58,918 bases of DNA from Chloroflexota bacterium (GCA_013203045.1 JABMQN010000004.1:1-58918), one strand, 5' to 3'. Positions 4,770 through 49,842 are shown, numbered from the stretch's first letter. The notes: generated from the sequence alone by a model not told the origin. Program-made: numbers and translations.

Positions 4770-5561
4770 TTACACATCGCCCACTCTTCCGGAAGGCCAC
4801 AAACGCGCCATAGCCCCCGGGTCTTCCAGATGAGAATCAATGCAATGACTGTATTTCGAGAATCTACTCCAGTCTGTATCGAGTAGTTTCATACGTCTCA
4901 ATGTAGTCGGCAAGTCCATGGTAGGCCCCTTCACCTCAATCACCGCTCCGCGCAACTGGAGTTCTCTTTCCCCATTGCCAAAACCCCGGGCCACAAACGT
5001 AGACCGGATATCATAATCGAGGGAAACTCGAATACCACTGAATATCTCTGTAAACCGATAGCGCGAGTATGAAACAGTTATGATTGGCCGAAGTGGTAGC
5101 TCTGTAAAATGTCCAAATCCTGCAACTGTATCGACGAGTACCTTTCTATCAATTATTCCCTCTCCCACACGATTCTGTTGGAGCGCTTCTGATGCCACTT
5201 GGAATTTCTCCCGCTTTTTACTACTGGCGAAACCACGCCTGGACTTAAGTTCTAAGAAAACCGGTACCGTCTCTGACAGATTTTCTTTTTCGCCATACCA
5301 ACGAATGCGAACTTTGTCTTTGTTATACTCGCCCGCTGCTGATCTTTCGTGCTGATCAAGATCAGGAGTATCGAAATATAGACTGTTGATCCGTCCATGC
5401 GGATACTCTCTATCCGGTCGGCAAAATTGCCGAAGCAGTGCGTAAGCAAGATCAATTCTTTGAGGAATTATATAGAATTTGCGCTCGAATCTTTGCCTGA
5501 ACTGGCCACCCACAGGAGTTGGTTCAGATGTCAATTCGGCATTCGCTAATTGTGATTGCAT
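4770..5561 (-). CDS. VTC-domain (polyphosphate polymerase / CYTH-fold) protein
   Basis: RFERKF, INSLYFDTP, KVRIRWY, LELKSR, RVSLD, VIEVK and FSKY motifs. Confidence 0.88.
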   Translation of the reverse strand: MQSQLANAELTSEPTPVGGQFRQRFERKFYIIPQRIDLAYALLRQFCRPDREYPHGRINSLYFDTPDLDQHERSAAGEYNKDKVRIRWYGEKENLSETVPVFLELKSRRGFASSKKREKFQVASEALQQNRVGEGIIDRKVLVDTVAGFGHFTELPLRPIITVSYSRYRFTEIFSGIRVSLDYDIRSTFVARGFGNGERELQLRGAVIEVKGPTMDLPTTLRRMKLLDTDWSRFSKYSHCIDSHLEDPGAMARLWPSGRVGDV

Positions 5562-5581
5562 ATCCTTCCCAATATATTAAC

Positions 5582-7489
5582 TCATAAAGGTGGTAGAGGG
5601 CCACCCGGAAAATCTCCCATAACGGGCATCCTCATGTCCCCACTACCGCTGCCACTTCCGTCGCCATAGCTTGGCCGCTTACCTTCAAGCTGTTCTTTTA
5701 TCGATTTTGTCCGTTCAACTACAAAGGTCCTCAGACCAATAAACGTCGAACCGGTTGTTGGCACAGCCACGCTTGGTCCTCGCCTGAGGAAAACATCCAT
5801 TTCCTCCCGGCTCAAACAAGATTTCAGCTTCTCAAGCTCTTCGATACTGGGCCGCCGAGTACGCAATTCGTCAAGTACTTCCTTTTCGAATTTACTCTTA
5901 AGACAAGTCAGACTTTCCTCTGAGAGTTGAGGCAAAGGTGTCTGGCCTCCTGGTGGAGGTGGGAATCCTCCCGGTGGTACGAATCCTTCTGGCGAAAATT
6001 CACCCGGCGGTAATCCGCCAGGTGGTGGTCCTTCAGGTAGCATACCCATCGGTGGGGCTCCCCCTTGACCCGATCGCTCCACATCTTGACTAAGACCACG
6101 CTCGAAGTCCTCGTTTGAAAAGAATTTGAGTTCATCTGCATAAACATAGGAATTAATCAAATCAGCGGTTTCATTGATTCGAGAAGTCATCTTTTCAATA
6201 CTGAAAGGCCCATCCAGAAATTCGTCAAGATACTCATAGTACTTCTCTAAATAAGGTTCATAAGTCAGTAAACGTTCAACGAGAGGACGTTCAGCCACAG
6301 GACCGATGGTCGGCTCATCGATATAGCAATTGATAATATCATCGCGGCTCATACCCATGCTGAACGCACCGAATGATCCATTGAGGTCCCAGGGAATGAT
6401 AGTGAATTTGCCGTCAACTTCATAGAGATAGTAGTTGTGCCCGACTCCAAGATAGCTATCGAAATATCCGATCGTTCCCGCCACTGCAACAAATCGAAGA
6501 GCGCTATCAACATCCAGCACCTTTTCGATCTCTTCAGGGAATGTCTCATCCGGCTCATTGTTGAGAACCTCAAGGAAATTTAGCAAGGCCGTATGATCCG
6601 GAAACTCTTCATTTGTTTTGAGCCCCATTTTTTCGATAAAATCCATTGGCTCGCTTTCAGGTGCGTTTGCGCGTCGATTGTCAGTTCCATCTTCTACGTC
6701 TTCTTCCTGCTCTTCCAATGCATTCATAATGTCCACAAGTTTGGCTCCACCCATGTTGATCTGCAGAGCAATTTCTTCATCTTCAGGCGCCGCAATTCCC
6801 AGTTCATCACGCAATTCTTCGAGGTCTTCTTCAGTCCAACTGAGGTAACCAGCAGGGGGTTCCGGTTTGTATAAGTTTCCGCCAACATCGGAGAAGTATC
6901 TATTCAAAAACGTCTTATCCACTTGTTCAACCTGGGTATACAGCCCCATATGCGTATCATTTATCCAGAGGTCAACGAAAGAAGTTTTGGGTGTGGGAAG
7001 GCCCATCAGGTCAAACAACTCATATGAGATGTGTTCGCGGATAAATGTAGGATCATTGAATCCGTTATTGAAATTGAGCTTCTTCAGACCACGAAATGTT
7101 CGGGCCGAATTGAAGAAATTGAAGTCGACTTTGAGGCTGAGTCGAGTGCTTCCCTGCCGAACGACTGAATTGAGCGAAGAGTTACCCTTTGGCCTGACAG
7201 CAACATCCGGAACAAGCTCACCATCGAACCAGAAATCTGCCTGGACATACTCTTCTTCCAACGCATCGAGTTGAAGCGTTTCCCAATCATCATCGCTCAT
7301 CACGATGCGGACTTCCGCCACACGATCGGTGACAAATGGCTCTGGACCATCGCCAGCACTCTCTCCAGAGGCTATTCCGACATATCCCATTAATCCCAGG
7401 CATAGGACTAGTAACGCAACGATCCCTGTTGCTGCTACCCTGTTCTCCCTCCAAATTTCATCGTTACCCATTTTAGTTGATCTGGACAA
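5582..7489 (-). CDS. CotH kinase family protein (membrane-anchored, Pro/Gly-rich insert)
   Basis: VRPKGNSS, SLKVDFN, KLNFNN, GLYTQVEQVD, GNLYK, HNYYLY and IPWDLN motifs. N-terminal TM helix. Start uncertain (7489 or 7471). Confidence 0.9.
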   Translation of the reverse strand: MSRSTKMGNDEIWRENRVAATGIVALLVLCLGLMGYVGIASGESAGDGPEPFVTDRVAEVRIVMSDDDWETLQLDALEEEYVQADFWFDGELVPDVAVRPKGNSSLNSVVRQGSTRLSLKVDFNFFNSARTFRGLKKLNFNNGFNDPTFIREHISYELFDLMGLPTPKTSFVDLWINDTHMGLYTQVEQVDKTFLNRYFSDVGGNLYKPEPPAGYLSWTEEDLEELRDELGIAAPEDEEIALQINMGGAKLVDIMNALEEQEEDVEDGTDNRRANAPESEPMDFIEKMGLKTNEEFPDHTALLNFLEVLNNEPDETFPEEIEKVLDVDSALRFVAVAGTIGYFDSYLGVGHNYYLYEVDGKFTIIPWDLNGSFGAFSMGMSRDDIINCYIDEPTIGPVAERPLVERLLTYEPYLEKYYEYLDEFLDGPFSIEKMTSRINETADLINSYVYADELKFFSNEDFERGLSQDVERSGQGGAPPMGMLPEGPPPGGLPPGEFSPEGFVPPGGFPPPPGGQTPLPQLSEESLTCLKSKFEKEVLDELRTRRPSIEELEKLKSCLSREEMDVFLRRGPSVAVPTTGSTFIGLRTFVVERTKSIKEQLEGKRPSYGDGSGSGSGDMRMPVMGDFPGGPLPPL

Positions 7490-7574
7490 CTATGCCCTGT
7501 CATTGCGAGAAGCAGATACCGCCGCCGCCGATATGCGCCAGGGCAGAAACTCTTTTCATGCCATTCCGGACTTG

Positions 7575-7738
7575 CAGACTGTGTCATAATGTCCTCAAAA
7601 GAGATCCGTTCGTACTGAGCCTGTCGAAGTATGAACGCACTGATCGGCAGGAACCCTTCGATAAACTCAGGGAGAACGGTAATCCCCGGTAATTACAATG
7701 GTAGAATTACTCAGTTTCGTTGATTGTGACACAGTCTG
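7575..7738. mobile_element. 164-bp non-autonomous MITE
   Basis: 16-bp terminal inverted repeats CAGACTGTGTCATAAT / ATTGTGACACAGTCTG with 1 mismatch. No transposase ORF. Flanks are TTG/TCG. Confidence 0.75.
7606..7679. repeat. REP-like hairpin (CCGTTC..CTGAGCCTGTCGAAG / CTTCGATAAACTCAG..GAACGG)
   Basis: Imperfect inverted repeat inside the MITE, resembling a widespread bacterial REP-like family. Confidence 0.75.
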
Positions 7739-7922
7739 TCGATCCGGAATCCATTACCCAGCCACCCCACTGGATTCTGATTTTCATCAAGAATGACATA
7801 TCGGGGTTTTATTTCCCATTTGTTCGGTGATAATACTCATTTCAGGTGTAAGTTTCTGAGTAGTCCTTCCGGTACTAACTCATATTAGACTAAAAAGATG
7901 AACGCCAGATGAACCGGTTGAG

Positions 7923-9416
7923 TCAAGCTTTATCCGGATCACCCCCATTTCCGCTTCCATCACCGGAACTGGGCAATTCACCATCAAGTTGCATTCTTAC
8001 TGATTCACCACGTTCAGCCACAAATGACTTGAGTCCAAAATATCTTCCTTGTCTTTCGGATAGATTGTATTCAAAATCCTCGGTTGGGTAGAATTTAAGC
8101 TCATCTGCTTCAACGTAAGGACGGATCATATCCGCAATCTCATCAATTCGAGATTCCATTGTCTCGACGGAGAACGGACCCGCTAACAACTCTTCAAGGT
8201 ATCCATGATATGCATCTAAATACGGCTGATATGACAGGAGTCGATAAACGAGCGGGCGTTCAACCACTGGACCACACGTGGGTTCATCGATAAAGAAATT
8301 GATGATTTCCTCACGTGGTATATTACATTTGTACGTGCCGAACGACTCGTTCAGGTCCCATGGAATAATGACGAACCTACCGTTAATTTCATAGAGATAG
8401 TAGTTGAGCCCCCTTCCAAGATAGCTATCCAGATTCACAAGAATCGTCTGCACAGCCAGAAACCGGAGAGCTTCATCAACATCTAATACCTTCTCAATCT
8501 CCTCCGGGAAGGTTTCATCCGGTTCGTTGTTGAGAACATCCAGAAATCGCATGAGTGCCGAGTGATTGGGTCGGTTTTCGTTGGTTTTTAACTTCATGTA
8601 ATCGAGATATTCATATTGGTGTTTTTCCGGCTCATCTTCGATCTCAGTAGCATCATACTGTTGTTCCGTTCCCAGAGCTTGCTCAATCTGGCTCAGGTCA
8701 CCACCACCAAGATTTACCTCATAAGCATCAGGGGAAACTGTTGGAGAACCCGTCGCCATTTCAGATCTCTGCTTTTCCAGAGCCTCTTCATCCCAATTTA
8801 AATATGAACCGGGGGGAATCGGCTTGTACAGATTTCCATCTGCGCGACCAAAATGCTGTGTGAGGAAAGTCCTGTCAACGTGATCTACCTGCGTATATAG
8901 ACCCATATGCGTATCATTCACCCAAAGATTAACAAACGACGTGCGAGGAGCAGTAACTCCCATTTCCCGGAAAAGCTCATAGGCGAGACTTTCACGTATA
9001 AGTGTTGGATCACGAAAACCATTGTGAAAATTCAATTTTTTTAGGCCACGAAATTGGCGCGCATCGTTTAGTAGATTGAAATCAACTTTGAGGCTCAATC
9101 TAATACTCCCATCCTCAATTACATACTTTAGCGACGAACTCCCTTTTGCCCGTACAGCCACGTCAGGTACCAGTTCGCTATCGAACCAGAAATCTATCTG
9201 ATAATATTGCTCTTTTTCTGCTCTCGACTGAAGGTTCTTCCACAACTCCGGTTTCATATAAAAATAGACATCAACCACACGATCAGTGACGAACGCGTCT
9301 CCGTCCCTGGAAGGGACCTGCATTGATGTCCTTTCCTGGCATCCCGTCACTCCAATACCTGCCAGTACTATCATCAATAGCAGGCTCGTCAGGACTATAT
9401 TGATTGCTTTACTCAT
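7923..9416 (-). CDS. CotH kinase family lipoprotein
   Basis: Lipobox-like GVTG-C. VRAKGSSS, KLNFHN, GNLYK, NYYLY and IPWDLN motifs. Clear paralog of 5582-7489. Confidence 0.9.
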   Translation of the reverse strand: MSKAINIVLTSLLLMIVLAGIGVTGCQERTSMQVPSRDGDAFVTDRVVDVYFYMKPELWKNLQSRAEKEQYYQIDFWFDSELVPDVAVRAKGSSSLKYVIEDGSIRLSLKVDFNLLNDARQFRGLKKLNFHNGFRDPTLIRESLAYELFREMGVTAPRTSFVNLWVNDTHMGLYTQVDHVDRTFLTQHFGRADGNLYKPIPPGSYLNWDEEALEKQRSEMATGSPTVSPDAYEVNLGGGDLSQIEQALGTEQQYDATEIEDEPEKHQYEYLDYMKLKTNENRPNHSALMRFLDVLNNEPDETFPEEIEKVLDVDEALRFLAVQTILVNLDSYLGRGLNYYLYEINGRFVIIPWDLNESFGTYKCNIPREEIINFFIDEPTCGPVVERPLVYRLLSYQPYLDAYHGYLEELLAGPFSVETMESRIDEIADMIRPYVEADELKFYPTEDFEYNLSERQGRYFGLKSFVAERGESVRMQLDGELPSSGDGSGNGGDPDKA

Positions 9417-19925: not shown

Positions 19926-20037
19926 ATGCATCTCCGCAGGCCACTGAAACAATAGTGCTCGAAATTTGAGAGAATCAATGTTGAGTGCAAGCAAACAAAA
20001 TTGCAAATCAAATACTTGCCAAATCAAAGAGGAGATT

Positions 20038-22281
20038 ATGGCTATCCTCCAATCCCATGGGGAAGATGAAAAATCATTGGAAAGAAAGGCTTTGTATAAA
20101 CTTACCAAATACTTGCTCACAAATAATGGTATTGAGTTACCTTTCTGCCAAAGAACTATGCAGGAGTTTGAAGTAACTTTTGATGAAGATATTGAAAAAC
20201 ATATAAAAAGCAAGATTTGTCAATTTAATATTATAGATCAGTATATGCCAGATGTTTTATGTGAGTATATTGATGCGGAACAAAAAAAGAAGTCACATGG
20301 AGAAGTATATACGCCCAAAGATGTCATTGAATTAATGATGTTCCGTGTAAAGACTTATATGAACTTCAGAGGTAAGGATATTTGTGATTATGCATCAGGG
20401 AACGGGGCGATTTTATACAATATAGCGAAGCAATATAAATCAATCAAATCCCTCGATGGAGTTGACGTTCAGCCATTTTCAACTCATTTAACCTTTGCAA
20501 ATGCTTGTCTAGCAAATACTGAAATCCACCACAAAGTACGCTCGATGACGTTTGATATCATTTTAGAGCGAGAAAGCTACGATAAAAAGTACGATCTCGT
20601 TATAAGTAATCCTCCATATATAGGTCAAAAAAATAACCAAGTCTTATTTGAACCACTCAAAACACATAAGTTCTGGTCTAGTTTTTACACATCGAAATCT
20701 GACTACCTATACTTTTTCATCATTCAAGCAATCGAATTATTAAAACCCAAAGGTATAGCATGCTTGATCACAACTCAATATTGGCTTACAGCAACCAAAG
20801 GAAACAAACTTAGAAAGTATCTAGCGGATAATGTAGATATATTAGAAATACATAATTTTGGAAATATTAAATTGTTTCCGAATGCTGGTGGGCAGGAAAA
20901 TATCATAATTCTAATGCAAAAAAGAACAGAAAAAGATATTCCCCCAAGTGATCGTAGTTTTTTATACATAACCTACGACAACTTATGGACCAAAAGCAAT
21001 TCTGCATTATGGTCAAATAAAAGGAAAGTGAGCAAGGTGATATCTTCTATCCTTTCGGGAGATAAAGTAAATGACCTTTATTCAGGTATGGTTACAATCG
21101 AAAAAACCTCTCTAACTGAGCAGGAATCAAATGGTTCTCCATGGCATCTGGAAAAGTCTGAAAGCGACATTGAAACTAAATCAAGGGAGACACCTATAGC
21201 TGATATTGTTACTATTCAGCCCGGTATTCAAACAGGATCAGATAAAGTTAATAGGAAGAACAAATTTGTTAAAGAAAACGAATCACTACTACCCAAATTA
21301 GGATACCATATTGGTGACGGAATTTATGTGCTTACCGAAGAAGAACTCAAATCGCTTAAACTCAATAGAAAAGAAAAAACCATTGTTAAGCCATTTTATA
21401 AAGTTGGCCAACTCAATATAAACGGGGTCAGCCATAATTTAAAACATTATCTAATACATGCCGAAATGATAGAAGATATTAACCAATATCCAAACATCCA
21501 AAAACACCTCGAAAAATTTAGAGATATATTAAATGTCAGGTATAAGACCTACGCCTTAGTTAATAATGAAAAAATTGGAAAGTGGTGGAAACTTGTCGGG
21601 GCAAGGCCTGATATACCATATGAGGGCGAAAAGATAATAAGTCCATCGCGTGCAAAAGAGCCATTTTTCCTGTATTCCAATAAAGAATTCTATTCATCTA
21701 TGGATGTTTTTTATACATACTCTACCAAAGAAGATGATCTGATTTCTCTTAAATTTATTGCAGCTTATCTAAATTCAGATAGCTGCATTGAATATTTGAA
21801 GAGGAATTGTAAAAAGAAAGGGATAAAGTATGAACTTTATAAAGAACCCCTTTCCAATTTACCGTTCCCCACGTTTAACAACGGGAAATCGAAAAGACTT
21901 AAATTCCATGATTTTATTGCTGGTAGATATTCACTTATAGAAAAAGAGGGGTTATCATACTGTGAAGCATCTAACACATGGATAGCAGTGCCAGGTATAT
22001 ATGATTATTTATTGAGGATTCAATATAGATTAAAACTTATTGAAGATAAATATCTATTAAAAGACTTAACTTTCAACCTACCCGATGATTTGGCCAGAAT
22101 AACCAATTGTGATGAAGTATTGTTTGTCGAGAATGCATTAAAAGAAATCTCAGATCAGGATCGCAAATATTTGACAGAATGCGCAAAAAATACAGTTAAC
22201 CCTGTTAATAAATATAAACAAAATTTGTCAGCACTAAAATACCTATTGAACCAAGTGGTTAATGAAATTCTAACTATATAA
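20038..22281 (+). CDS. Gamma-class N6-adenine DNA methyltransferase with C-terminal target-recognition domain
   Basis: GEVYTP (motif X), DYASGNG (I), ISNPPY (IV), DYLYFF and LRKYL motifs, plus a TaqI_C-like tail (AAYLNS). ATG 20038 with GAGGAG RBS. Very AT-rich. Confidence 0.9.
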   Translation: MAILQSHGEDEKSLERKALYKLTKYLLTNNGIELPFCQRTMQEFEVTFDEDIEKHIKSKICQFNIIDQYMPDVLCEYIDAEQKKKSHGEVYTPKDVIELMMFRVKTYMNFRGKDICDYASGNGAILYNIAKQYKSIKSLDGVDVQPFSTHLTFANACLANTEIHHKVRSMTFDIILERESYDKKYDLVISNPPYIGQKNNQVLFEPLKTHKFWSSFYTSKSDYLYFFIIQAIELLKPKGIACLITTQYWLTATKGNKLRKYLADNVDILEIHNFGNIKLFPNAGGQENIIILMQKRTEKDIPPSDRSFLYITYDNLWTKSNSALWSNKRKVSKVISSILSGDKVNDLYSGMVTIEKTSLTEQESNGSPWHLEKSESDIETKSRETPIADIVTIQPGIQTGSDKVNRKNKFVKENESLLPKLGYHIGDGIYVLTEEELKSLKLNRKEKTIVKPFYKVGQLNINGVSHNLKHYLIHAEMIEDINQYPNIQKHLEKFRDILNVRYKTYALVNNEKIGKWWKLVGARPDIPYEGEKIISPSRAKEPFFLYSNKEFYSSMDVFYTYSTKEDDLISLKFIAAYLNSDSCIEYLKRNCKKKGIKYELYKEPLSNLPFPTFNNGKSKRLKFHDFIAGRYSLIEKEGLSYCEASNTWIAVPGIYDYLLRIQYRLKLIEDKYLLKDLTFNLPDDLARITNCDEVLFVENALKEISDQDRKYLTECAKNTVNPVNKYKQNLSALKYLLNQVVNEILTI

Positions 22282-43310: not shown

Positions 43311-43413
43311 TTATATCTGCTTCTGTTAGCTACAGTACATGATCTGGATCATATACTGCAATCTGCAATGCCTCTTATTATTTTTTCATGTGTTAACGCT
43401 GGGAGGCAAAAGA

Positions 43414-43614
43414 ATGGATACACCTTGTCCGGGACAAGATTGCCGTTTTGAACGGCTCGAATTCTACGAGTGTCCCATGTGTGGGACAGATGCAATGATC
43501 TTCTCTGATGAAGATGGAGTCAAATGCTGTGAATGCGATAACTTCATCAAACCACAAGATGTTCGTAGCTGTATTAGCTGGTGTATTGCATCACGAGCCT
43601 GTGTGAAGAGGTGA
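43414..43614 (+). CDS. Small Cys-rich (Zn-ribbon-like) protein
   Basis: CPGQD..CPMCG..IFSDE..C..C..SC..WC....C. GGAGG RBS. Confidence 0.7.
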   Translation: MDTPCPGQDCRFERLEFYECPMCGTDAMIFSDEDGVKCCECDNFIKPQDVRSCISWCIASRACVKR

Positions 43615-43651: not shown

Positions 43652-43760
43652 TTATACTTCTGAGGAACCCATTATGCAATGACGTCACAAATGGGCAGAT
43701 TTGCTACGGCAATTCCAAGTCACAAACCTCGAGACCAGTTTCTATAGCGGATTCGTCTCG

Positions 43761-43859
43761 TGATAATGGCGTTTTGTAAAGTCTGAGGCAGTCGAAGAAG
43801 GTGATGAAGGCAGTATACCGCTGCATCATCTCAAGGGATTCCCATCTCCCAAGGCCCTT
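43761..43859 (-). pseudogene. Tyrosine recombinase C-terminal remnant
   Basis: LGRWESLEMMQRYT resembles integrase box II (LG[H/W]...M..RY). No upstream domains present. Confidence 0.6.
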
Positions 43860-43891
43860 GAAATAACCGTACTTCCCACCGGGGGAGCAGG

Positions 43892-44003
43892 TCAGAGACT
43901 GGCTGATTCGCATATCTCCCTGGCTTTTTCTACCTTAGAATCGTCTATTCTGCGCAGCCCTTCAAGCGGATAGATCATCTCCACCCGGCTCATAGCTGGG
44001 AAC
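43892..44003 (-). pseudogene. 3' remnant of a second glycyl-radical activating enzyme
   Basis: IYPLEGLRRIDDSKVEKAREICESASL matches the C-terminus of 45922-46845 at 18/27 aa. The upstream PSYE lies in a shifted frame. Confidence 0.75.
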
Positions 44004-44082
44004 CGCGACTCCTTCTGATGCTGTGGATTCTGGGCGCTTACGTTCCATTCGTCTCTTGAAATGTACTCATTATCACCATAAC

Positions 44083-44111
44083 TTGACAATAGTATAAATA
44101 TTTAGTACAAT
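44083..44111 (+). promoter_or_regulatory. Sigma70-type promoter of the TA operon
   Basis: TTGACA-17 nt-TACAAT, followed by near-palindrome GATGGCTATAGTCATC. Confidence 0.6.
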
Positions 44112-45866: not shown

Positions 45867-45903
45867 AAAAAAGCCGCTGAAAGTTTCTTCCAGCGGCTTT
45901 TTT
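45867..45903. terminator. Bidirectional intrinsic terminator
   Basis: AAAAAAGCCGCTG..CAGCGGCTTTTTT between convergent genes. Confidence 0.8.
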
Positions 45904-45921: not shown

Positions 45922-46845
45922 CTATTTCCCAATGACAGCTTTCAAACCTGCACCTTCACAGATTTCCTTCAACTTTTCAACTTTGCTATCTTCCAGTCTC
46001 TCTAGCTGTTCTAGCGGATAGGTCCTGCCTAAACGCTCATAACTTGGAGTTCCCCATTCATGATAAGGTAGAAGGGAAACCTGTTCAGCGCCAATTCCCA
46101 CTCCAAATTCAGCTAACTGCTGAATGTTTTCCTCAGAATCATTGAACTGGGGAATCAGTGGAACTCTTATCCACAGTCTCTTTTTGGCAGCAGCTTTGCG
46201 AGCGTTTTCCAAGATCAAAGCGTTGCTTTGCCCTGTTCCAGTGATATGTCTACCTGCATCCATATGCTTGATATCAAACAAAACCAGATCAGCATATTCG
46301 AGCACACTTTCCATCACTTCCCATTTGGCAAACCCGCAGGTATCCAACGCAGCATGAAGACTTTTGTCTTTGAGTGCCTTAAATAGCTCTCGCGTGAAAG
46401 TGGGCTGGCTCAACGGCTCACCACCAGATACAGTGACGCCACCACCGGAATTTTTGTAGAACGGTTCGTCACTCATAACCTCTTTCACTACTTCATCGAC
46501 TGTCATGTATTCGCCGGCAATTACAATCGACCCGCTGGGGCACACTTCTCCACACTTCAGGCAAAGATCACACTTATCGCGATGAATTACACGACCCTGC
46601 AACGGATCAGCCGTGATTGCTTCAACCGGGCAAACTTCTACACATTTATCACAAGCAATGCATTTCTGGTCATAGGTCATGATCTCAGGATGAGGTTGTT
46701 GTGATTCGGGGGTGCTGCACCACTGACAAAGTAAAGGACACCCCTTCAAAAAGACGGTGTCCCTTATCCCAGGTCCATCATGGACCGTAAATCGTTGAAT
46801 CCTTAGTATGAGCCCTTTTGGCTCTTTTTCCTCTGCTTGCGCCAA
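45922..46845 (-). CDS. Glycyl-radical enzyme activating protein (with ferredoxin insert)
   Basis: HDGPGIR, KGCPLLCQWC, two CxxCxxCxxxC, SGGEP and LLPYH motifs. Confidence 0.94.
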   Translation of the reverse strand: MAQAEEKEPKGLILRIQRFTVHDGPGIRDTVFLKGCPLLCQWCSTPESQQPHPEIMTYDQKCIACDKCVEVCPVEAITADPLQGRVIHRDKCDLCLKCGEVCPSGSIVIAGEYMTVDEVVKEVMSDEPFYKNSGGGVTVSGGEPLSQPTFTRELFKALKDKSLHAALDTCGFAKWEVMESVLEYADLVLFDIKHMDAGRHITGTGQSNALILENARKAAAKKRLWIRVPLIPQFNDSEENIQQLAEFGVGIGAEQVSLLPYHEWGTPSYERLGRTYPLEQLERLEDSKVEKLKEICEGAGLKAVIGK

Positions 46846-46849
46846 TCAA

Positions 46850-49261
46850 CTACCCCACAAAGGCTTGTTCGGTTCGATCGATTATATCATCCTGCAGGGT
46901 TTCAGTCAGGTCCACAAAATAGGCCGCATAGCCGGATACTCTGACAATCAGGTCTTCGTGCTCCTCCGGTTCAACCTGAGCTTCCTTAAGCTCCTCAGGA
47001 ACCACAATATTGAACTGAATGTGATGTATTCCCAAATCAGACCAGGTCTTCAGATAATCCGCGAACATCTCGCGGTAATCCCCCTGGAGCATTTGAGGGG
47101 AGAACCTCTGATTGAGCAGGTGATTGTGTGATTTTAACGGATCAATCTTACCAATAGACTTCAACACGGCGGTCGGACCTTTGACATCTCGTCCCTGAGA
47201 TGGTGAGATGTTTCCGTCAGGCAGCGGCTCTTTGGCAAAGCGGCCATCAGGAGTGGCGCCGCAACCGGCGCCGGTGAAGTATCCCATCGATGCCGAGGTT
47301 CCATCTATTTCATACCCTTCCCCGTAGAAGGAAAGGTATTTCTTCGATTCTCTGGCTATTCCGTAGAAAACTACCTGGGCCAGTTTATCCACATAATCGT
47401 CATCGTTGCCGAATTTGGGAGCGGCCAGCATCATCTGGCGGATATCCTCTTTGCCTTCAAAGTTGGTATCCAGAGTTTCACGAAGTTGGGCCATAGTGAT
47501 TTTCTTCTCATCAAAAACCAGCTTTTTAATGGCTGCCAGCGAATCGGCTGTGGTCACACCGCCAATCATCAGGAGCCAGGTGCGAGGATAATACTGCCAC
47601 TTGCGGCAATCCAGTGCCACATCGATCGAATCATCCAGCATGATGGTGGTAAACGGTCGGGGTAGCAATTCTGCGTAAACCATGTCACCGGCATTGCCCA
47701 GAGCGGTGTTCTTCTCGACGAAGAAGTTGAACTGGACGAAAAAGGCGTCAATCACGTCGTCGATGGATTCAAATGTATTCGGGTCAGGTGTGCGCGCTCC
47801 CAGTTGCTTACCACTCATGTTATCGATGCCCTGGTTGATGGCCAAATCGAGACACTTGGGTAATGAGAAGTGCCCATTTGACTGGCGGTTGACAATGTTC
47901 TTGCCCGGAATCTGCCAAGACATGCAGTTGTTGATAGCATAGCTTCGAGCATCTTCAATGGAGAAGCCCCGCTGCAGATAATAAGGGATCAGCACTTTAT
48001 CGTTGAAAAAGGCCGGCTGTGCCACGCCTGTTGACTGACAGTCGATCGCTTTTAGTATCAGGTCCCTGGGAGTTTTGTCATTATATCGGAAGCAAAGGGG
48101 CGGCTGTACTGATTGTAATTCCATCGTTGCTTCAAGAATGAGATGTGAAAGCTCATTGGACGCATCGTTGCCATCCTCATCGCAACCGGCCAGAGTGATG
48201 TTCTGCCATGCCAGTCCACCGCCGCCGGCGCTCATCATCACCGGTGGGTGAACATATCCCATCTCTTCGAATTTGATCCACAGCATCTCGATCAGGTTCA
48301 GTGCCTCTTCTCTGGTAATTCGGCCTTCTTCGATATCCTTTTTGTACCAGGGGTAACAGACATAGTCCAGCCTGAAGCCGGAACCCACAGCCGGCATCTC
48401 CAGGAAATCGACAATTATATGGACAATGAAGAAACTTTGCAAGCAATCATGGAACGTCTCACAAGGATTCTCCGGCACTCGTTCACAAATGCCAGCAATT
48501 TTCTCCAAATTATCCTTTTTCTCCGGATCAATCTCAGCTGCTGCTTTCTCACGAGCCAGAGCTGCATAGCGCTTGGAAAACGCAATCGCTGCTTCTACCG
48601 TGATGATTGCCGCTTCCAAAAATCGCTTCATTTCGCCATATTCCTGAGTAGAAAGGCTCTTATCCTCACCGATCTCCCTCAGCCGAGCTTCGCAGTCATT
48701 TACGATCGCCCTTAAACCCGTCTTGAAAATGCGCTCATAAGCCGGCAGAGTAGAATCCCACTGATACGACCAGAAGAAAACGCCATTGTACTTGGAATAG
48801 GCTTTGACGCTATCCGGTACAAGTTCCCGTTCCTTACCATGGGCACACTTATCCTGCCAGTACTTATTAATTTCGAATAGTTCCTCTCGGCCCTCGTCAT
48901 CGATCATATGTTTGTATTCGTCCTGAACGGCCTTGCCGAGCCACCGGACAAACATCTCCGGATAGGTCGGAACCGAAGCGTTATCACAGGCGATATTACC
49001 CACAATCTGCTCCTGATCCTGTATGAAGACGGTCATGTTTTCCAGGATATTCTTGAGTGCCAATGCCCTTCGCATTACCATGGGCATACCTTCGGTCTGC
49101 TTATAGGACTCAGTCACCAGACGTGCCCTCTCAAGGCACAACCTCACGTTTGCCCGGTATCCGGCGCTATCGTCTATTCGTTCAAAACCACGGTATAGAC
49201 CTTTTATAGCTTTGATTACCTTCTCATCCTTACGCACTTGAACTGCAGCATTCATATTCAC
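46850..49261 (-). CDS. Glycyl radical enzyme of unknown specificity
   Basis: PKFGND, ATPDGR and HHIQFN motifs, Gly loop RVSGY, Cys loop NNCMS. Confidence 0.93.
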   Translation of the reverse strand: MNMNAAVQVRKDEKVIKAIKGLYRGFERIDDSAGYRANVRLCLERARLVTESYKQTEGMPMVMRRALALKNILENMTVFIQDQEQIVGNIACDNASVPTYPEMFVRWLGKAVQDEYKHMIDDEGREELFEINKYWQDKCAHGKERELVPDSVKAYSKYNGVFFWSYQWDSTLPAYERIFKTGLRAIVNDCEARLREIGEDKSLSTQEYGEMKRFLEAAIITVEAAIAFSKRYAALAREKAAAEIDPEKKDNLEKIAGICERVPENPCETFHDCLQSFFIVHIIVDFLEMPAVGSGFRLDYVCYPWYKKDIEEGRITREEALNLIEMLWIKFEEMGYVHPPVMMSAGGGGLAWQNITLAGCDEDGNDASNELSHLILEATMELQSVQPPLCFRYNDKTPRDLILKAIDCQSTGVAQPAFFNDKVLIPYYLQRGFSIEDARSYAINNCMSWQIPGKNIVNRQSNGHFSLPKCLDLAINQGIDNMSGKQLGARTPDPNTFESIDDVIDAFFVQFNFFVEKNTALGNAGDMVYAELLPRPFTTIMLDDSIDVALDCRKWQYYPRTWLLMIGGVTTADSLAAIKKLVFDEKKITMAQLRETLDTNFEGKEDIRQMMLAAPKFGNDDDYVDKLAQVVFYGIARESKKYLSFYGEGYEIDGTSASMGYFTGAGCGATPDGRFAKEPLPDGNISPSQGRDVKGPTAVLKSIGKIDPLKSHNHLLNQRFSPQMLQGDYREMFADYLKTWSDLGIHHIQFNIVVPEELKEAQVEPEEHEDLIVRVSGYAAYFVDLTETLQDDIIDRTEQAFVG

Positions 49262-49407
49262 ACCTCCTGAGATGAATTAGTTACAATATATAGATTAATT
49301 TTAGCACAACCGCAAAAAGCTTTCACGCTGTCAATCGCAATACCATAATTTAACGGGAGTGCCTGTATTCTGTATGTGATTTGAGTCACTTTTTTAGCGC
49401 AGCATCT

Positions 49408-49842
49408 TTAAACCGGCTTCATAAAATAGTTAATTAACTGACCTACAGCTACTAATTCACCATCCAGGTTTTTGACGTCAGCTCGCATGTGAAGCAAATT
49501 CTTAGTTATTTCAACAACAGTTGCTATTACATCGATAGATTTGTCAGTTTCTCTAACGGGGCGTATATATGTTGCATTGATATGAGTGGTAACACTTGGA
49601 GGCGCGACCATATAACTCAAAGGTCCAAATGTGTTATCCATCGCGGCCACTATCATTCCCCCCTGCATCGCCCTCAATGGATTCTGATATCGTTCCTTCA
49701 CCGGGAATCTTGCGGTCAGCGATTTTCCTTCGACATATTCAATATATTCGCCTTCCATATCCACAAATATTTTTGGTGGTATTTCTATATTTGATTGTTT
49801 AGGCAATTTTGATGATATCAATTTCAATAATTCATCTGACAT
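49408..49842 (-). CDS. PaaI family hotdog thioesterase
   Basis: YQNPLRAMQGG...MD and YIRPV motifs. Confidence 0.88.
   Translation of the reverse strand: MSDELLKLISSKLPKQSNIEIPPKIFVDMEGEYIEYVEGKSLTARFPVKERYQNPLRAMQGGMIVAAMDNTFGPLSYMVAPPSVTTHINATYIRPVRETDKSIDVIATVVEITKNLLHMRADVKNLDGELVAVGQLINYFMKPV

Follow-up and report, generated by a model that had tools for sequence, protein, structure and literature searches.

According to a 2026 review (PMC13450708), C(sp3)–C(sp3) bond formation by glycyl radical enzymes (GREs) is known from the X-succinate synthases (XSS) only. These enzymes are sought for bioremediation and biocatalysis and are hard to handle, their alpha subunit depending on iron-sulfur helpers; in benzylsuccinate synthase (BSS) and methylalkylsuccinate synthase (MASS), the gamma subunit is needed for solubility and the beta subunit for turnover (PMC13450708). 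Fumarate is held by the oxyanion hole of the Cys loop together with Arg508 in BSS or Arg492 in MASS, and the other contacts differ between the two, as described in PMC12358834. Every characterised eliminase or isomerase keeps a Cys-x-Glu (CXE) motif, in which the Glu is the base hydrogen-bonded to the substrate hydroxyl, and entire GRE clades lack validation (PMC13450708). Here, we describe an intact gene for an oxygen-sensitive GRE, P0001, from a 58,918-nucleotide (nt) stretch of the genome of a Dehalococcoidia-type Chloroflexota bacterium (GCA_013203045.1, JABMQN010000004.1:1-58918), hereafter the window. With its downstream activase gene and an optional hotdog-fold thioesterase gene, it forms an operon that, with a rough probability of 0.85–0.9, encodes a member of an uncharacterised PFL2-type clade, an enzyme in which the radical passes from Gly777 to Cys446 and which is neither a CXE eliminase or isomerase nor a formate lyase. 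As to the reaction, sequence comparison points to a single-subunit radical enzyme that would anchor a carboxylate on Arg459, dispense with acid-base catalysis and most likely perform hydroalkylase-like C–C chemistry, to which we assign a probability of about 0.4. The features concerned, with protein lengths in amino acids (aa), are:

46850..49261 (−), GRE, P0001; stop-free frame of 803 aa from a GTG, with 801 aa from an ATG at 49255 being likelier

47873..47938 (−), Cys loop and following hairpin, A442–G463, AINNCMSWQIPGKNIVNRQSNG; read from the translation and aligned to BSS

47924-47926 (−), catalytic Cys446; aligned to BSS Cys493

47885-47887 (−), Arg459, at Cys+13; aligned to BSS Arg508

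46928..46942 (−), glycyl radical loop RVSGY, residues 774–778, with Gly777 at 46931-46933

45922..46845 (−), GRE-activating radical SAM enzyme, P0002, 307 aa from a TTG start; TIGR02494

The Pfam matches of P0001 (PF02901, PFL-like, E 2.5e-166; PF01228, Gly_radical, E 2.2e-26 over residues 684–783) have E-values that indicate homology and not a chance motif. Both strings on which a first-pass annotation of the bare sequence had relied, the Cys loop YAINNCMSWQIPGKNIVNRQSNG and the glycyl loop RVSGY, are present in the minus-strand translation of 46850-49261. The TTG start of the activase lies 4 nt past the GRE stop. P0002 scores 341.7 bits with TIGR02494 against a cut-off of 174 and carries a CxxxCxxC motif as well as a ferredoxin-like insert with two Cys clusters at residues 59–108, which bears out the ferredoxin-insert activase of that annotation.

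P0001 remained under the cut-off of all NCBIfam equivalogs, namely HypD (525 versus 1100), HpsG (506 versus 1000), HpfG (446 versus 1000), IAD (422.5 versus 1100), CutC (421 versus 1050), PflD-type (388 versus 1109) and HPAD (300 versus 1150). The PFL2-3 subfamily model was also missed (545 versus 678), and TIGR01255 (PFL) gave 86.7 versus a cut-off of 994, the loop reading NCM and not the CC of formate lyases. Sequence identity to the fetched reference GREs was 30–36% throughout in the joint alignment. Among structures in the Protein Data Bank (PDB), the top match was B12-independent glycerol dehydratase (1r8w, 480 bits), followed at 444–395 bits by HypD, propanediol dehydratase, CutC, AAD, IseG and BSS; AssA/MasD was compared by PDB score only (374 bits). 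The AlphaFold2 (AF2) model of P0001 (pLDDT 85.6, pTM 0.89) gave template-modelling (TM) scores of 0.86–0.91 to every PFL2-type GRE in a Foldseek search of the PDB, with 1r8w at rank 1 and 4pkc at rank 7, and a search of the ESM Atlas returned generic GRE clusters only. The 119 database homologues listed (780–1645 bits, 45–86% identity) all stem from metagenome-assembled genomes (MAGs) or metagenomes, and those among them with a named source belong to Dehalococcoidia, Chloroflexi, Thermodesulfobacteriota, Nitrospinae and Pseudomonadota. The occurrence of the clade in Dehalococcoidia, other Chloroflexota, Thermodesulfobacteriota and Nitrospinae-type MAGs is well supported. No characterised enzyme of this clade was found in the literature searched, which included the class list of PMC13450708 but few subscription journals and no supplementary trees or sequence similarity networks, so that a placement may have been published. 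A divergent, uncharacterised GRE class, as had been proposed for this gene, is therefore upheld by the missed equivalogs, the 30–36% identity and a monophyletic clade that is devoid of characterised enzymes among those included (see below).

Comparison with the known systems shows resemblance on several sides. P0001 shares its length class, single-subunit make-up and activase type with the CXE eliminases and isomerases (1R8W, 5I2A, 6VXC, CutC, IslA, HpsG, YbiW/PflD and HplG), and identity to glycerol dehydratase is 35% across the region matched by tblastn and 34.5% in the joint alignment, at a TM score of 0.90; however, the Cys-x-Glu of these enzymes is Cys-Met-Ser in P0001. AAD (7E7L) is likewise a single-subunit enzyme without the Glu at Cys+2, with a GCVL loop instead of NCMS. 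The PFL2/'PflD' protein of Archaeoglobus fulgidus (2F3O) is, like P0001, an orphan single-subunit PFL2-type GRE; its function is debated, with glycerol dehydratase and alkylsuccinate synthase having been proposed (PMC13450708 and PMC8163825). At 355 bits, it ranks 17 among 37 PDB matches to P0001, at the weaker end of the full-length PFL2-type ones, and so does not belong to the same clade. The XSS (BssA/TutD, 4PKC and 5BWE; MasD, 9O8U) have in common with P0001 the Cys-Met-Ser loop, the absence of the Glu at Cys+2, an Arg in the column of the fumarate-binding BSS Arg508 and MASS Arg492, and a ferredoxin-insert activase, and they are its nearest characterised clade in both phylogenetic trees. 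They differ in being only 30–32% identical, in their length (862–883 aa versus 801–803, P0001 being some 60 residues shorter) and in carrying BssB/BssC-type subunits, which P0001 lacks both at its locus and in its genome.

The catalytic loops were compared across reference and family alignments. BssA-type reference loci were retrieved from genome contigs by means of a bssA primer pattern, and the sequences of GDH, HypD, CutC, YbiW, PflD, PflB and two pdu-type GREs were taken from plasmid records. The family set comprised 119 rows, i.e., P0001 and 118 homologues of at least 740 aa, from which the partial sequences P0062 (701 aa) and P0112 (568 aa) were left out. PflB reads ACCVSA, all seven CXE enzymes (GDH, CutC, HypD, YbiW, PflD and the two pdu-type GREs) read GC(V/I)E, and the BssA-type references have LCMS(P/A) followed by Arg at Cys+15 in seven of seven cases, so that the motifs from which the first-pass annotation had argued are borne out by the fetched sequences. 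Its reading of the gene itself, CMS with an Arg at Cys+13 and no Glu at Cys+2, is equally correct: these positions are Arg459 and Ser448, the latter standing where eliminases have their Glu. In HMMER, Cys446 is paired with the catalytic Cys of glycerol dehydratase, numbered Cys433 in PMC13450708, and in MAFFT with BSS Cys493.

Within the family, all 119 rows have the catalytic Cys and 118 have the glycyl-loop Gly, the remaining row having a gap at the latter position. Met follows the Cys in 107 rows, as in all seven BssA-type references, and Trp stands at Cys+3 in 98. Glu was found at Cys+2 in none of the 119 rows, this position being taken by Arg (59), Ser (26), Tyr (7), Gln (6) or others (21, including one Asp). 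By contrast with this variation, Arg459 is present in all 119 and shares its alignment column with BSS Arg508; the BSS numbering was checked against residues named in the literature, with an offset of one. The same column holds Thr, also at Cys+13, in the aligned CutC, and the crystallisation of a CutC T502A variant (title of entry 5FAW) fits an active-site position for it. In the AF2 model, Arg459 lies on strand 458–461, directly before the Gly463 loop. Of the further active-site positions, BSS Ser199, Met494, Ser495, Gly513, Trp613 and Ile617 correspond to identical residues in P0001 (Ser170, Met447, Ser448, Gly463, Trp562 and Ile566).

Phylogenetic trees were computed with FastTree (137 rows, PflB as outgroup) and with IQ-TREE (LG+C20 PMSF, 45 rows). 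XSS were represented by BssA-type sequences only; PAD, IAD, HPAD and AssA/MasD sequences were left out. A metagenome scan with the family alignment contributed rows L141, L150, L151, L153, L166, L168, L178, L193, L205 and L207; its best loci were 40–46% identical, most others were HypD-like GCVE enzymes, and no close orthologue was found. The P0001 family was monophyletic, with a support of 100 in FastTree (119 rows) and 99 in IQ-TREE. Its sister in both trees, with an SH-like support of 99, was a group consisting of the BssA-type XSS and an 840-aa group, i.e., two 839-aa paralogues from the genome that contains the window. Further out in IQ-TREE came another paralogue of that genome and, after it, two metagenome GREs that pair with each other; of these, L168 serves as an AAD-like proxy (620.8 bits to 7E7L versus 542 for its next match) and fell outside the family-plus-XSS clade with an SH-aLRT of 99. 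All CXE enzymes fell outside that clade in both trees. We thus regard as well supported that the P0001 clade does not nest within any CXE clade, as judged from these alignments. A nest inside an eliminase or decarboxylase clade, which would have spoken against a class of its own, was seen neither for CXE enzymes nor for the AAD-like proxy. The sister relationship to XSS appears moderately supported, because the XSS branch is long and a long-branch warning was issued.

Accessory subunits were sought at the locus and genome-wide. No BssB/BssC-type open reading frame (ORF) was found beside the GRE gene, in agreement with the first-pass annotation: the gaps of 116, 146 and 197 nt, into which such genes would not fit, hold only ORFs of 39–43 aa without the four-Cys pattern of the small subunits. 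The small ORFs at 43339-43614, 43704-43913, 43892-44089 and 49489-49794 were considered as hidden subunits and rejected, as they have no Pfam match and one of them resembles the remnant of an activase C-terminus. Throughout the genome of the organism (3.97 Mb, 92.6% complete), the top matches of PF08201 (BssC) and PF18512 (BssB) scored 16 and 12 bits, respectively; they were below cut-off, interrupted by stops and no better than those in control genomes. As a positive control, the same models gave 88.5 bits on Aromatoleum bssC and 131.2 bits on Aromatoleum bssB, respectively.

For the mechanism, it is well supported that the activase sets the radical on Gly777, which hands it to Cys446. We further propose that the resulting thiyl radical would act by hydrogen-atom transfer alone, unaided by any acid-base residue on the Cys loop. 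The substrate carboxylate would be held by the backbone of the Cys loop and the invariant Arg459, in the manner of fumarate in BSS and MASS, and the rest of the predicted pocket would be mostly hydrophobic or aromatic (Trp168, Trp352, Trp449, Trp562, Met447, Met659, Ile566 and Leu564). Given the arginine anchor, the absence of an acid-base residue and the hydrophobic pocket, a hydroalkylase-like reaction is the most likely one, in which a radical formed on the substrate would undergo addition to a fumarate-like unsaturated (di)carboxylate, or in which the same chemistry would operate on just one amphipathic carboxylic acid. This would yield an acid, to be passed by CoA-transferases or CoA ligases into beta-oxidation. 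Unlike in the known XSS, catalysis would be performed by a single subunit. A broader proposal, namely that the whole clade consists of single-subunit GRE hydroalkylases that join C–H substrates to fumarate or to an enoate like it without the beta and gamma (and delta) helpers required by all known XSS and that have diversified in their substrates across Dehalococcoidia and other subsurface anaerobes, is possible though doubtful.

Gene neighbourhoods were inspected in 401 genomes of the same class, which are kin of one another, so that locus counts are not independent. A GRE matching P0001 at E ≤ 1e-100 was found in 79 of them, often as several paralogues per genome. Among orthologues of at least 80% identity (seven genomes including that of the window), seven of seven have the activase gene immediately downstream and three of seven have the thioesterase gene upstream; the thioesterase was accordingly rejected as a conserved functional partner. 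At loci of 60–63% identity with a readable downstream flank, the GRE gene is followed in seven of ten (L247, L248, L250, L251, L253, L254 and L221) by a 304-aa Amidohydro_2 protein (PF04909) and in none of ten by an adjacent activase, and several of these loci have a divergently placed enoyl-CoA hydratase. At genome loci of 44–51% identity, two family-III CoA-transferases follow the GRE in three of ten (L257, L260 and L261), with an acyl-CoA dehydrogenase (ACAD) after the pair in L260 and L261. In NCBIfam, these neighbours come closest, though always below cut-off, to succinate-glutarate and succinyl-CoA:mesaconate CoA-transferases and to pimeloyl- or glutaryl-CoA dehydrogenases, and the GREs of the CoA-transferase loci have an Arg not only at Cys+13 but also at Cys+2. 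We take paired family-III CoA-transferases with an ACAD to follow the BbsEF/BbsG logic of benzylsuccinate, i.e., succinate-adduct, activation, and count this context in favour of hydroalkylase-like chemistry. Three further loci (L136, L140 and L259) lie beside acyl-CoA ligases, hydratases and FabK/NMO-like reductases.

A number of observations weigh against hydroalkylase-like chemistry. By raw similarity, glycerol dehydratase is a nearer match to P0001 than BSS is (480 versus 395 bits), BSS was absent from the 24 matches of a search with the Cys loop of P0001 only, and Foldseek cannot separate the GRE classes because all PFL2-type GREs score a TM of about 0.9. The loop itself, NNCMSW, has Asn at −1 and Trp at +3 (the latter in place of BSS Pro496), where the BssA-type references have Leu and Pro/Ala in seven of seven, and BSS Asn615, Gln707 and Phe385 are replaced by Leu564, Thr655 and Gly346. 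Two of these, Gln707 and Asn615, are fumarate contacts in BSS, and the Gln707 column is Thr or Ser in all 119 family rows. Absence of the Glu at Cys+2 is not peculiar to the family either: in an alignment of P0001 with the 150 best 50%-cluster representatives, which is rough in the loop region, it is missing in 80 of 151 rows, so non-CXE orphan GREs are abundant in metagenomes well beyond this family. P0001 further lacks the BssB/BssC-type subunits that BSS and MASS require. In the trees, the XSS rows form a clade of their own (support 100), to which the family is sister and not internal; the XSS branch is long (1.25–1.55 changes per column), and the FastTree run flagged a meeting of long branches, XSS with the 840-aa group. 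A PflB root on the XSS branch, which unites PflB, XSS and the 840-aa group, was not rejected in the approximately unbiased (AU) test (p 0.396), so that the root position is uncertain, this being a poorly chosen test of the link between family and XSS. Forcing the family together with 13 CXE rows cost 44 lnL units and was marginally rejected (p-AU 0.035); this speaks for the link to XSS, but the group was chosen after inspection of the tree. As for gene context, the CoA-transferase pairs are limited to members of 44–47% identity from genomes that are mutual kin; L136, L140 and L259 form a subgroup of the wider family without the Arg; and no CoA-transferase, beta-oxidation or hydrocarbon gene lies near the operon, nor does the window contain hydrocarbon-degradation genes or a bbs- or ass-like set. 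The resemblance to fumarate-adding enzymes on which the first-pass annotation had built therefore holds in part: the Arg column is conserved in 119 of 119 rows and the clade stands beside XSS, but as a sister and not a member, without the subunits and with Asn615 and Gln707 lost.

The lack of a Cys+2 Glu would also suit a GRE decarboxylase, in which Arg459 would bind the carboxylate group of an acid of the aryl- or alkyl-acetate type, the thioesterase perhaps having freed this acid from its CoA ester, and in which loss of CO2 would be initiated by the thiyl radical as in AAD, PAD and IAD. The hotdog thioesterase upstream of three of the seven close orthologues and the Amidohydro_2 protein after seven of ten GREs at 60–63% identity may be cited in its favour. 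The Amidohydro_2 fold includes non-oxidative decarboxylases. Decarboxylases are, moreover, the other GRE class in which the Glu at Cys+2 is not universal, the AAD loop being GCVL, and AAD, which needs no small subunit (PMC13450708), scores 399.6 bits with P0001 versus 395 for BSS and came second in the search restricted to the Cys loop. We nonetheless hold this explanation to be unlikely, since the IAD and HPAD scores reach only 422.5 of 1100 and 300 of 1150, the AAD-like L168 falls outside the clade of family and XSS (within a tree sampling that excluded PAD, IAD and HPAD), and the CoA-transferase pairs and ACAD beside distant members suit an acid product better than a hydrocarbon. A somewhat unlikely alternative, though one to be weighed above decarboxylation, is carboxylate radical chemistry new to GREs, such as cleavage of a substituted succinate by retro-addition or in a lyase reaction, isomerisation of a carbon skeleton or double bond, or the joining of a non-hydrocarbon donor with an enoate. 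The diversity at Cys+2 alongside the fixed Arg suggests many substrates with one common handle, and tandem arrays of two to four paralogues occur in some genomes; on the other side, nothing points positively to any particular one of these reactions, and the nearest characterised relatives in the trees perform fumarate addition.

A 1,2-eliminase or isomerase in which a different base replaces the Glu at Cys+2 would explain why glycerol dehydratase leads in both sequence and fold (480 bits, 35% identity, Foldseek rank 1) and why the best equivalog-level NCBIfam scores of the activase, all below cut-off, are those of eliminase activases. It is very unlikely, given that CXE is universal in the characterised enzymes (PMC13450708) and occurs in 0 of 119 family rows, and that the clade lies outside all CXE references, with the joint placement marginally rejected as stated above. 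Finally, the gene might be a decaying or non-functional paralogue, as one could suspect from the remnant of a second activase 2 kb away and from the presence of four GREs in the genome. This is extremely improbable: 803 codons are open, the catalytic motifs are all intact, the activase is translationally coupled, and the same gene pair recurs at 80–98% identity in six other genomes. Overall, hydroalkylase-like chemistry remains the reading we favour.

The remaining elements of the operon are given below:

49408..49842 (−), hotdog-fold (4HBT) thioesterase, P0003, 144 aa; 146 nt upstream of the GRE gene on the same strand

49263..49268 (−), Shine-Dalgarno sequence AGGAGG; read from the sequence, with a distance of 7 nt to the ATG at 49255

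49298..49326 (−), promoter-like site, GTGAAA-17 nt-TAAAAT with TG before it, in the gap between thioesterase and GRE genes; consensus match only

45867..45898 (−), GC-rich hairpin, AGCCGCTG ... CAGCGGCT, with a T run after it; read from the sequence

The true start of the GRE is probably the ATG at 49255, which is preferred because of the AGGAGG 7 nt upstream and because of the lengths and starts of homologues: among the five closest in the database, P0005–P0008 comprise 801 aa and begin with MN at the aligned position, and P0009 has 808 aa. The evidence for the promoter-like site is weak, since the scan returned 12 such sites versus 6.6 ± 2.6 expected from shuffles. The hairpin lies 24 nt after the activase stop and, together with the T run, likely marks the end of the operon; its loop is longer than the automated hairpin scan allows, so that it was not listed there. 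For the upstream gene, the label PaaI thioesterase proposed earlier was too specific. A generic hotdog 4HBT protein is indeed encoded there, but P0003 passed only TIGR00369 (42.3 versus 36.6), remaining far under the cut-off of the PaaI equivalog (24.7 versus 118.9), and it accompanies only three of the seven orthologues. The operon is flanked on both sides by unrelated genes (hipBA, a LuxR-type response regulator, TetR, a NapH-like protein and an HAE3 transporter), and the remaining window is occupied by housekeeping genes, including ilv/leu genes, ftsK and accA/D.

Further GREs were noted in the same genome, which has four in all, and in its relatives. The three other GREs of the genome (L002 on C124, L003 on C158 and L004 on C263) all lack the Glu at Cys+2. 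One of them, of 795 aa with the loop ACVQD, adjoins a 71-aa ORF with two CxxCxxC motifs, ferredoxin-like by eye, and a 239-aa ORF. The other two, of 839 aa (GCVAYN and ACAANH), branch with the BssA-type XSS with a support of 80–95 and are without the Arg. The GRE of L004 has its own activase downstream. Elsewhere in the class, GRE paralogues occur in tandem, four in L256 (G229:C152) and two each in L261 (G310:C25) and L245 (G122:C17), and single genomes contain up to 26 first-look GRE candidates (G033 and G128); these tandem paralogues and high numbers per genome suggest a lineage-specific expansion of the GRE superfamily in Dehalococcoidia. In L245, a 1238-codon frame at 5249-8965 (+) runs antisense to the GRE and activase genes of this relative; although its length is unusual for an antisense frame, it almost certainly does not represent a gene.

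Within the window, a 65-aa ORF at 43892-44089 (−), situated between the TetR gene and hipB, has its last 35 residues 57% identical to residues 267–301 of P0002 (pairwise E 9e-12) and looks like the remnant of a second GRE activase. A 91-aa Cys-rich ORF at 43339-43614 (+) contains several CxxC pairs and is zinc-ribbon-like, with no Pfam or NCBIfam match. When the window segment 38067-44172 was compared with locus L243 from the same genus, the Na/Ca exchanger gene was found to adjoin hipB directly in L243. In the window, these two genes are separated by a block of about 5 kb with the HAE3 RND transporter, the NapH-like ferredoxin protein, TetR, the 91-aa ORF and the activase remnant, which thus represents an insertion or deletion difference. 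The segment 20001-24000 is low in GC (0.34–0.40 versus about 0.47 elsewhere) and holds an Eco57I-type N6-adenine methylase gene (19966-22281) and an ORF that matches no family, and probably represents a restriction-modification island that was acquired.

What is new here is a GRE subgroup with a Cys-Met-Ser/Ala loop and an activase of its own. Surveys often score Dehalococcoidia GREs as assA or bssA, according to the available part of bioRxiv 10.1101/2020.02.02.928283, and the P0001 clade fails the defining features of both, which matters for the reading of metagenomes. [quoted passage not shown] If the hydroalkylase reading is true, C–H activation of the fumarate-addition type would be far more widespread, and easier to reconstitute, than thought. 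With matches in 79 of the 401 genomes inspected, the enzyme is widespread in its class, and a piece of anaerobic carbon turnover that has gone unrecognised probably depends on it.

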